Below, piece by piece: positions 10,725 through 10,885 of a stretch of DNA of 64,000 bases. Location: positions 76,962 to 140,961 of the forward strand of contig DMWY01000007.1 of assembly GCA_003483065.1 (NCBI GenBank). The letters run 5' to 3'. Below the pieces are notes generated by a model. It saw only the letters and a list, made by a program, of their open reading frames with translations. It searched no databases and had not been told where the DNA came from. Made by a program: the position numbers and the translations under genes. This stretch comes from Candidatus Moraniibacteriota bacterium (GTDB taxonomy: Bacteria; Patescibacteriota; Minisyncoccia; Moranbacterales; UBA2206). The number at the start of each line of letters is the position of its first letter. The first letter of the stretch is position 1.

Positions 10725-10885
10725 TTCGCCAATTTTGTCTGCGAATGAAATGAGCAGGAACAAAATTGAGCGTCCCGCACTAATTCACAGATCAAATTAA
10801 TATTTATTAAAAGCCAAGCCGCAGGCGAATTCACAATAAAGTCTTTCTATAACGATAAACTCCATCAGAATTAGTGCGGGGCTAA
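10725..10885 (-). repeat. Conserved ~150-nt structured 5'-leader element, copy 1 (upstream of rpsU)
   Basis: Shares TTTTGTCYGCGAA...GAGCrGGAACAAAA..GAGCrTCCCGCACyAATTC...AAGCCGyAGGCGA...GAATTrGTGCGGG with copies at 31791-32017, 47628-47787 and 49506-49660. Terminal 14-15-bp inverted repeat gtcccgcactaattc / gaattagtgcgggg. Confidence 0.7.

Follow-up and report, generated by a model that had tools for sequence, protein, structure and literature searches.

An interspersed structured repeat that ends on the start codons of housekeeping genes in Moranbacteria-type bacteria

Why would four functionally unrelated genes, a probable rpsU together with groEL, mreB and murA, be preceded by the same structured sequence? 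All four lie on the minus strand of a 64-kb stretch of the Candidatus Moraniibacteriota contig DMWY01000007.1, hereafter the window, meaning the whole stretch of DNA that was analyzed. A first, sequence-only reading had described a conserved element in the 5′ leaders of these genes and had proposed either a mobile, promoter-carrying repeat or a global cis-regulatory leader RNA. We find that the element belongs to a previously undescribed family of interspersed repeats, approximately 160–170 nucleotides (nt) long and confined to Moranbacteria-type bacteria of the Candidate Phyla Radiation (CPR). There is good support for its being, or deriving from, a mobile insertion that lands exactly on initiation codons in the sense orientation. 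We favor, with evenly balanced confidence, the explanation that it persists as a transcribed 5′ module, acting in cis to mask the start codon and read by a common factor.

The family was defined with a covariance model (R1) built from the four window copies and run on all 64 kb with filters off. The four copies scored 121–176 bits (E <= 1e-26 for the whole window), all on the minus strand as originally described, and no further copy was found. Their places were confirmed and their spans refined to 10727–10883, 31785–32025, 47627–47787 and 49500–49660. Other R1 matches with E < 0.01 fell at these four loci again, on the plus strand, and were weak echoes of the palindromic arms; everything else had E > 0.6. 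The four copies have a mean column identity of 76% when the additional groEL hairpin is left out, and the arm motif GAATTGGTGCGGGA, allowing up to three mismatches, occurs 21 times in the window vs 5.2 ± 2.5 times in shuffles. Relatives were sought with the exact pattern GTGC(N)GGGAYGCTCNNTTTTGT, using one genome per species. At least 117 stretches matched, which among the matches listed were mostly metagenome-assembled genomes (MAGs) labelled Moranbacteria, Moraniibacteriota, Parcubacteria or Patescibacteria, and R1 found full-length copies in about 100 of them; L labels below denote these relatives' stretches, taken as 8-kb chunks. The resulting alignment, A4, holds at least 110 copies from at least 43 assemblies, the window counting as one. 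A single assembly carries up to at least 12 copies by the one exact pattern alone, and L053 has four within 4.8 kb of a ribosomal-protein cluster. The window organism is related to the MAGs DCUU01 and JBAZSS01, at 86–95% nucleotide identity. As the sequence-only reading had recognized no known family, so Rfam release 15, searched with the whole window at the gathering threshold, returned 23S, 5S and tRNA only and left the element unmatched; for the mreB copy at E <= 10 it returned noise (microRNA and small nucleolar RNA models, 15–18 bits). The core pattern had no match in viral contigs, and a literature search on repeats, Shine–Dalgarno (SD) sequences and leaderless starts in Moranbacteria, Patescibacteria or CPR found nothing relevant to the element.

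The element is built from two helices, which were derived by RNAalifold on the window copies. P1 is a helix of 13–15 base pairs (bp), CCCGCACCAATTC with GAATTGGTGCGGG, enclosing a domain of about 90 nt; these arms and the shared sequence blocks had been described correctly. Within this domain lies an almost invariant CGCCUNCGGCU hairpin. P2, which the earlier reading missed, pairs (U)GCUCAUUUUUGU..C.. with ..G..ACAAAAAUGGC(A), and the translation start region itself forms its 3′ strand, ACAAAAAUGGCA. The consensus runs (TAT)CCcGCACcAATTCC, approximately 45 variable nt, tCGCCTnCGGCTtag, approximately 35 AT-rich nt and gcGAATTgGTGCGGGAtGCTCAtTTTTGTagCtnCTCgctncgcTCgcaGACAAAAaTGGCa. In A4, information content drops steeply 2–3 nt before CCC and straight after GGCA, so the element has sharp boundaries at both ends. 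P2 alone folds at −11.8 to −18.2 kcal/mol (−47 with the nested hairpin of the groEL copy) and the P1 domains at −31 to −34 kcal/mol, and most window-copy folds lie well below shuffled controls. Inverted repeats are internal, formed by the arms of P1 and P2; at the extreme ends there are none, as (TAT)CCCGCAC... and ...ACAAAAATGGC are not inverted copies of each other. P1a, the GCC/GGC hairpin, is almost invariant, yet its loop takes up extra GC-rich hairpins in at least 11 copies, and the P2 loop takes up P1-like hairpins. The small GC-rich palindromes GCCTGCCGGCAGGCAGGC, CGCCTCGATTCGGCGAAGCGGGC and TACTCGAGGCGAGTG recur as P1a-loop insertions (A4 columns 136–195; for example L082:6020-6209, L059:2056-2248, L035:3221-3416 and L111:263-447), and they look like further mini mobile palindromes of these AT-rich genomes.

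Several additional features were tried and rejected. An inner AT-rich helix of the P1 domain, predicted from four sequences, is just 64% paired in 110 copies, and an extension of P1 by the 5′ flank, ATGGCTAT with ATGCTCAT, pairs no better than composition predicts. A mutual-information scan shows no pseudoknots or extra long-range pairs besides P1 and P2. No upstream or coupling open reading frame (ORF) is conserved, since CCCGCAC / CCCAGCAC and loop-length indels break the frame; reading from the relic ATG discussed below meets a stop after about nine codons in the groEL and mreB copies. A self-splicing intron or IStron, or a ribosome bypass, is countered by the lack of any intron model match and by the decay of the 5′ relic ATGGC in many copies (e.g., murA), which means that the 3′ ATG must be the start.

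The position of the element relative to genes is close to fixed. Of 109 copies whose 3′ end is available, 68 have the start codon within P2, at −5 from the terminal GGC, so that the gene begins ATGGC and the protein M-A; in 32 an ATG or GTG directly follows GGC (position 0); and in three the start is at +2, +6 or +15, the rest being an RNase P RNA copy, truncations or assembly gaps. We call copies whose own ATG is the start class 1, about two thirds of the total, and those followed by the start class 2. The use of the element's ATGGC as a start had escaped the sequence-only reading, which had the element ending between a few and 30 nt short of the start codon. That description holds for the rpsU copy (15 nt), whereas in the groEL and murA copies the ATG is inside P2 and the mreB copy ends on the A of the ATG. 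Across the family, 100 of the 109 copies thus sit at −5 or 0, although two copies lie inside RNase P RNA genes. Genes starting with ATGGC number four of 53 in the window, two of them element-bearing, vs 68% of element-bearing genes family-wide. Even degenerate copies remain at start codons, namely L058:5805, which precedes what looks from its N-terminal sequence like a NusB gene, and L007:698, a P1-only copy in which GGG|ATG is apparently the start. One full-length copy, L076:837-1008 (minus strand), is followed by just a 10-codon ORF (MANKKPRGGS*) and no long gene.

Orientation is equally constrained. Every one of the 106 copies tested has the same sense as the gene that follows it, and the random orientation that the sequence-only reading had set against a regulatory role was not seen. 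The G-rich strand carries 100 of these copies and 86% of coding bases; the six on the C-rich strand (L27, L20, L28 and ugd loci), in the minority gene orientation, are still sense, so that orientation is set by the gene and not by replication. The downstream genes are as unrelated as had been claimed, 100 proteins giving hits to 112 Pfam families (HypC 8, S14 7, GroEL 6, GAPDH 3; families seen as pairs include MreB, MnmA, SecY, RF, MurA, L20, S13, L27, PilC, DnaJ, L10 and L3). They are mostly housekeeping genes, EF-Ts, IF-1, secY and many ribosomal protein genes among them, and the element sits on about 5–7% of genes, or about one in fifteen. For 78 of 102 copies the closest ORF upstream runs in the same direction, and in 46 of these its stop lies 4–25 nt before P1. 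Furthermore, −10-like hexamers concentrate 14–25 nt upstream of P1, and a sigma-70 consensus scan of the mreB and murA copies found no site inside, with candidate promoters upstream of the element. Upstream −10-like boxes, nearby upstream stops and the lack of an internal site argue that the element is transcribed as a leader or intercistronic spacer. The promoter-carrying part of the earlier proposal is therefore not supported; of its alternative, a global cis-regulatory leader, the location in 5′ leaders and spacers and the constant sense orientation stand, and action at the RNA level is a matter of interpretation, taken up below.

The setting in which these starts operate is itself largely free of SD sequences. 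Only a handful of the 53 long window ORFs have one, with clear cases at 27808–29340, 29446–29928 and the S21-like ORF. A/T-rich sequence precedes most window starts, and a −10-like box frequently ends 6–8 nt before the ATG, a pattern that suggests widespread leaderless or very short-leader mRNAs in the window organism; SD-less examples are the genes at 61152–61958, 24294–25217, 14642–15274 and 19113–20291. The absence of an SD after the element is thus normal for the organism, and the unusual feature is that the AUG forms the end of a long, stable structure. A split ribosome-binding site was considered and rejected, SD-like 4-mers in the 5′ flank being mildly enriched (42 of 106 vs approximately 28% by our own estimate).

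Both helices are maintained by paired changes. The sequence-only reading had rested on one compensatory pair in the rpsU arms (C to T matched by G to A), which is correct. In A4, P1 and P2 are each 96% paired and both-sided changes occur in 27 of 38 pairs, counts that are inflated to some degree because A4 was fitted to the model and its sequences are related. Column shuffles reached none of the five observed measures in 500 trials, and sliding the partners by 1–3 columns lowers pairing from 92% to 31–49%. The closing pair of P2 is U-A in 93 copies and C-G in 13, and no copy has U·G. On the 3′ side this pair uses, in class 1, the synonymous third position of the alanine codon and, in class 2, the first base of ATG/GTG; both states are found within orthologous sets (the S14 set; mnmA in L080 vs L054). 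Additionally, TTG replaces the inner ATG in 15 copies on several P2 backgrounds, each time with a compensating A in the 5′ arm, and in all identified TTG copies the inner ATG is not used as the start. Conserved blocks exceed 90% identity while the remaining columns of A4 have no consensus. The closing pair, the TTG variants and the block conservation are hard to square with inert selfish copies.

Signs of mobility are seen at individual sites. L056, syntenic with the window at 86–89% identity, has no element at mreB: past murA the homology is lost, and it is regained precisely at the A of the mreB ATG. The junction reads TAATTTTTTTAAATAT|ATGTTTGTACG in L056 and TAATGAAAATATGTT|ATCCCAGC...ATCGGC|ATGTTTGTACG in the window, leaving a 5-nt direct repeat, ATGTT, at the filled site. 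The nested hairpin of the groEL copy has no counterpart in L083 (approximately 94% identical) or L046, the uncovered part of the window being 31805–31889. The mobility suggested earlier is supported by these two differences. The window also differs from L056 at the mreB site by an extra ORF of 107 amino acids (aa), PRA-PH/MazG-like, between murA and mreB (47799–48253 vs L056:3560-3587), which means that gain and loss of the copy are not separable with certainty; the last 20 or so murA codons differ as well. In the 5′ flank, ATGG is present in 20 of 69 class-1 copies vs none of 32 class-2 copies. The class-1 ATGGC, or a decayed form, often lies 3 nt before P1 and 6–15 nt past the upstream stop, a natural intercistronic spacing, and is read as the gene's original start, now orphaned. 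The 3′ ATGGC of this flanking repeat belongs to the conserved P2, and most class-2 copies show no repeat. Copies are 69% identical within a genome and 67% between genomes, whereas orthologous copies (groEL, murA, hypC, S14, RF, L3, L20 and mnmA) are mutual nearest neighbors at 83–98%; one within-genome pair, in L053, is 91% identical, and some P2 variants are lineage-specific. Equal divergence within and between genomes, with orthologues nearest to each other, indicates that the family is old and mostly vertically inherited, with occasional new insertions.

The favored explanation joins these observations as follows. The insertion brings its own 3′ terminus, ...ACAAAAATGGC. Genes that once began with ATGGC now use the ATG of the element (class 1), whereas in other genes the old ATG or GTG is retained immediately past GGC (class 2), and the earlier start persists in the 5′ flank as a decaying direct repeat. 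Most copies have later been inherited vertically at orthologous sites, with occasional gains. Transcribed together with its gene, the element is predicted to fold into P1 and P2, the latter base-pairing the AUG and the second codon in class 1 or the first base of the AUG in class 2. The fold may then act in cis on the mRNA, setting or gating initiation, and perhaps 5′-end stability, for ribosomal proteins, chaperones, and cell-envelope and central-metabolism genes. A common factor recognizing the invariant CGCCUNCGGCU hairpin would presumably open or cut it.

Other observations weigh against this explanation. Masking the AUG of essential, highly expressed genes such as groEL and those for ribosomal proteins is paradoxical unless something opens the fold. 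Family-wide, P1 and P2 contain 15 G·U pairs against 23 A·C mismatches, so that G·U is not the more frequent of the two. This scarcity weakens a simple RNA-only reading, being unusual where a helix is under selection as RNA alone, and argues for a DNA-hairpin constraint. The rpsU copy and L113:4475 are followed, approximately 15 nt downstream, by an SD and ATG of the gene's own, so the element is not needed for initiation there. Finally, two copies lie inside RNase P RNA genes, where translation is irrelevant. The gene at L111:3318-3903 (minus strand) holds a sense copy at the P19 position, immediately 5′ of ACAGAA; here the Rfam RNase P model spans 586 nt, barely at threshold (100 bits), and other large insertions are present. 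The gene at L042:1-360 (minus strand) holds a sense copy at the P3 position, immediately 5′ of GAGGAAAGUCCGG (GAGGAAAGTCCGG). The element is thus tolerable as a peripheral hairpin of a structured RNA, and translation is not its sole context.

The strongest rival is that the element is purely selfish DNA, a non-autonomous palindrome of the kind of MITEs (miniature inverted-repeat transposable elements), repetitive extragenic palindromes (REPs) or the IS200/IS605 palindrome-associated transposable elements (PATEs), whose hairpins would be recognized by a transposase as single-stranded DNA and would have no role as RNA. Such copies would persist at start codons only because the terminal ATGGC repairs the ORF. 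We consider this rather doubtful, but it has more in its favor than any other alternative. It accounts directly for the Watson–Crick-only complementarity and for the two RNase P RNA copies, as well as for the mreB copy and the nested hairpin that close relatives lack. The flanking direct repeats (ATGTT at mreB, ATGGC in class 1 and AAATTGG at the L111 RNase P copy), the lineage-specific P2 subfamilies, the 91%-identical L053 pair and the acceptance of further small palindromes by the P1a and P2 loops also fit. However, approximately 20 independent class-2 sites would tolerate either orientation, and still every copy is sense, including the six on the probable lagging strand. Random intergenic positions, such as those upstream of promoters or after stop codons, are unused. 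Inactive selfish copies should decay evenly, whereas the blocks and the pairing are kept in old vertical copies, and the compensatory changes fall at host codon positions within orthologous sets. The extreme ends lack terminal inverted repeats, and no transposase, of the Y1/HUH type or otherwise, turned up in the 64-kb window or the relatives' 8-kb chunks, although no systematic protein scan was made.

A second rival, which we regard as unlikely, keeps the element active as RNA and makes it a processing, punctuation or stability signal, with P1 and P2 cut by a double-strand- or hairpin-specific RNase that separates cistrons. The cut would leave a short A-rich leader (ACAAAAAUG...) that a largely SD-less organism translates well, and 5′ hairpins might protect the mRNA. 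The masked-AUG paradox would then be resolved. The A/T-rich or leaderless-type starts of most window genes are in line with such a leader, and the 46 of 102 copies lying 4–25 nt past an upstream stop, several of them in ribosomal-protein clusters, with a separation of cistrons. A strictly Watson–Crick helix suits a protein that measures helix geometry, and the neisserial Correia/NEMIS (Neisseria miniature insertion sequence) repeats are reported to be RNase III substrates (PMC2229807). Nevertheless, the AUG takes either of two registers against the helix, offset by 5 nt, so a single structure-defined cut cannot make the same leader for both. Moreover, neither P1 nor P2 is as long as a classical RNase III substrate, and the copies in RNase P RNA would be cut too.

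Somewhat less probable again is a bolder form of the favored explanation, in which the element is a phylum-specific, structure-based initiation cassette. Here a mobile RNA/DNA module homing to start codons would substitute a standard folded unit for the native initiation region of about 5–7% of genes and place ribosomal, chaperone and envelope genes under one post-transcriptional switch, building a regulon by transposition. In these largely SD-less bacteria, the switch might be opened by a dedicated factor or by structure-dependent, SD-independent ribosome recruitment.

The two remaining alternatives are essentially excluded. A promoter-carrying cassette driving the downstream gene, very improbable in our judgment, would suit the location directly upstream of highly expressed genes and the fixed-length AT-rich linker between the conserved motif and the P1 3′ arm, but the mreB and murA copies have no internal sigma-70 consensus site and their candidate promoters lie upstream, P2-loop insertions of approximately 80 nt would break −35/−10 spacing in that part of the element, GCAGACAAAA before the ATG is not a −10 box at leaderless distance, and copies exist inside RNase P RNA. 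A ligand-sensing riboswitch or gene-specific leader, which we rate lowest of all, could point to a conserved hairpin motif joined to an AUG-sequestering helix resembling an expression platform, but not to any pathway shared by the 112 downstream families, nor is it easily squared with at least 12 copies in a genome, a mostly unconserved domain of approximately 90 nt whose predicted inner helix is 64% paired, and the lack of an Rfam match.

How, then, does the element compare with known repeats? Mycobacterial interspersed repetitive units (MIRUs) are the closest precedent; they are reportedly found within operons and co-oriented with flanking genes. A passage of a 2025 review (PMC12548453, citing Supply et al. 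1997) describes MIRUs as placing themselves at start codons, with an internal ORF coupled at −4 spacing. Judged by that passage, the element resembles MIRUs in being inserted at start codons and co-oriented with the gene, and differs from their 40–100 bp and coupled internal ORF in its length of approximately 165 nt, its two helices and its lack of a conserved ORF. It also belongs to another phylum, donates its own ATGGC start and base-pairs with that start. Correia/NEMIS repeats are imperfect palindromes of 100–150 nt, intergenic and co-transcribed, whose RNA stem-loops are said to affect mRNA processing by RNase III or expression (PMC2229807). Co-transcription and stem-loop formation are probably shared by the element. 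The enterobacterial repetitive intergenic consensus (ERIC) or intergenic repeat units (IRU) are likewise co-transcribed, stem-loop-forming palindromes. Correia and ERIC sequences carry terminal inverted repeats and occur in either orientation at variable distances from genes, Correia with a TA target duplication. The element, in contrast, has no terminal inverted repeats, a single orientation and a fixed place at the start codon, and the same features set it apart from MITEs.

REPs with their associated tyrosine transposases (RAYTs), and IS200/IS605-derived elements including IStrons, resemble the element in their imperfect, bulged hairpins with strictly Watson–Crick arms and in lacking the classical architecture of inverted repeats and target duplication. 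In IS608-type elements, the left and right cleavage sites resemble each other, and here the 5′-flank sequence resembles the 3′ terminal pentanucleotide of the element; the element segment GCTCAT can pair with either copy of that pentanucleotide. Nonetheless, REPs are 20–40 nt long, lie mostly 3′ of genes and occur in both orientations, and the element differs in all three respects. Its orientation follows the gene and not replication, unlike IS200/IS605 elements, and peel-and-paste transposition would not be expected to leave the 5-nt direct repeat seen at mreB. A further likeness, drawn from the predicted fold, is to RNA thermometers (fourU, ROSE) and riboswitch platforms, as the U-rich CAUUUUUGU would pair with the initiation region ACAAAAAUG and hold the AUG in an A-U-rich helix; groEL and dnaJ are among the downstream genes. 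However, thermometers serve single genes or small regulons and usually mask the SD, whereas the element is multi-copy, precedes unrelated genes and has the extra P1 domain.

Moranbacteria-type CPR bacteria have not been cultured, and essentially no work exists on how they express their genes; here a single fold is present on about one in fifteen gene starts. If the element does act on mRNA, it would be a candidate signal, genome-wide, for translational control or processing in mostly SD-less organisms, and clearly an instance of initiation regions being rewired by a mobile element. Should it be merely selfish DNA, it would represent a second independent case, after MIRUs, of homing to start codons, achieved by donating a replacement ATG. 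In either case, the family is useful for gene callers and RNA annotators.

The individual window copies illustrate both the rule and its exception. The first, at 10727–10883 (minus strand; 175.8 bits), precedes the probable S21/rpsU gene. Its P1 5′ arm, CCCGCACTAATTC (10868–10880), pairs with the 3′ arm, GAATTAGTGCGGG (10774–10786), through a T-A variant pair among others, and the P1 domain folds at −33.9 kcal/mol (z = −4.6). The conserved motif TCGCCTGCGGCTTGG with the P1a mini-hairpin GCC/GGC occupies 10814–10828, and its CGCCTnCGGCT is at least 90% conserved in 110 copies. The P2 hairpin, CGCTCAATTTTGT ... ACAAAATTGGCG (10727–10772; −15.5 kcal/mol, z = −4.7), is a TTGGC variant with the compensating A in the 5′ arm. 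Alone among the window copies, this one is followed by a separate SD, AAAGGAGGT (10718–10726), present as the sequence-only reading had it, and by an ATG (10710–10712) 15 nt downstream of P2, the two spanning 10710–10726 on the minus strand. The 84-aa product has a sub-threshold S21 match (E = 0.37), which leaves rpsU a probable assignment, whereas Pfam confirms GroEL, MreB and MurA downstream of the other copies. Upstream of the four copies, Pfam places HisRS, GroES, the 107-aa PRA-PH-like ORF and an SLT-domain protein.

The second copy (31785–32025, minus strand) lies between the groES stop (32040–32042) and groEL, whose ATG (31788–31790) is inside the P2 3′ arm (31785–31796). An ATGGC in its 5′ flank (32026–32030, minus strand), a direct repeat of the element's terminal ATGGC and 9 nt past the groES stop, is read as the relic of the original groEL start. 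The nested hairpin described earlier for this copy is present, a P1-like GTCCCACACCAATTT / AAATTGGTGTGGGAC in the P2 loop at 31807–31888 (minus strand). The third copy, 5′ of mreB (47627–47787, minus strand), has P1 arms at 47771–47784 and 47672–47684, the motif at 47714–47728 and P2 arms at 47658–47670 and 47627–47638, so that P2 ends on the A of the ATG (47625–47627); ATGTT in its 5′ flank (47788–47792, minus strand) repeats the first 5 nt of mreB. The fourth, 5′ of murA (49500–49660, minus strand), has P1 arms at 49644–49657 and 49548–49561, the motif at 49589–49603, a P2 5′ arm at 49534–49546 and a P2 3′ arm (49500–49511) that contains the ATG (49503–49505); its orthologous copy in L056 is 98% identical. 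Mechanical longest-ORF calls put two of the starts within the element: mreB (46620–47681) is made to begin at a TTG of the P1 3′ arm and murA (48234–49547) at the ATG of GGGATGCTC. The true starts are at 47627 and 49505, and gene callers may thus misplace both.

Other repeats were observed in the window and its relatives. A second intergenic repeat of approximately 110 nt, with AAATTAGAAATT / ATTGGAAATT-type motifs, has three copies (21431–21541, 25662–25787 and 44191–44311). Related to it are lineage-specific tandem motifs (AATTAGAGATAA, ATAGAACAA, ATTCGTA / ATTCGGATA) in ribosomal-protein gene spacers, which are unusually long at 100–200 nt (relatives L031, L051, L115, L008 and L016). A 49-nt repeat with TTCGCATCATTCGCAT-type heptamers, 90% identical between its minus-strand copies at 22655–22703 and 46530–46578, reaches the ATG of two unrelated genes (22222–22689 and 45431–46537). 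Finally, a 137-nt direct repeat, 86% identical, occurs 500 nt apart at 53468–53604 and 53968–54104.

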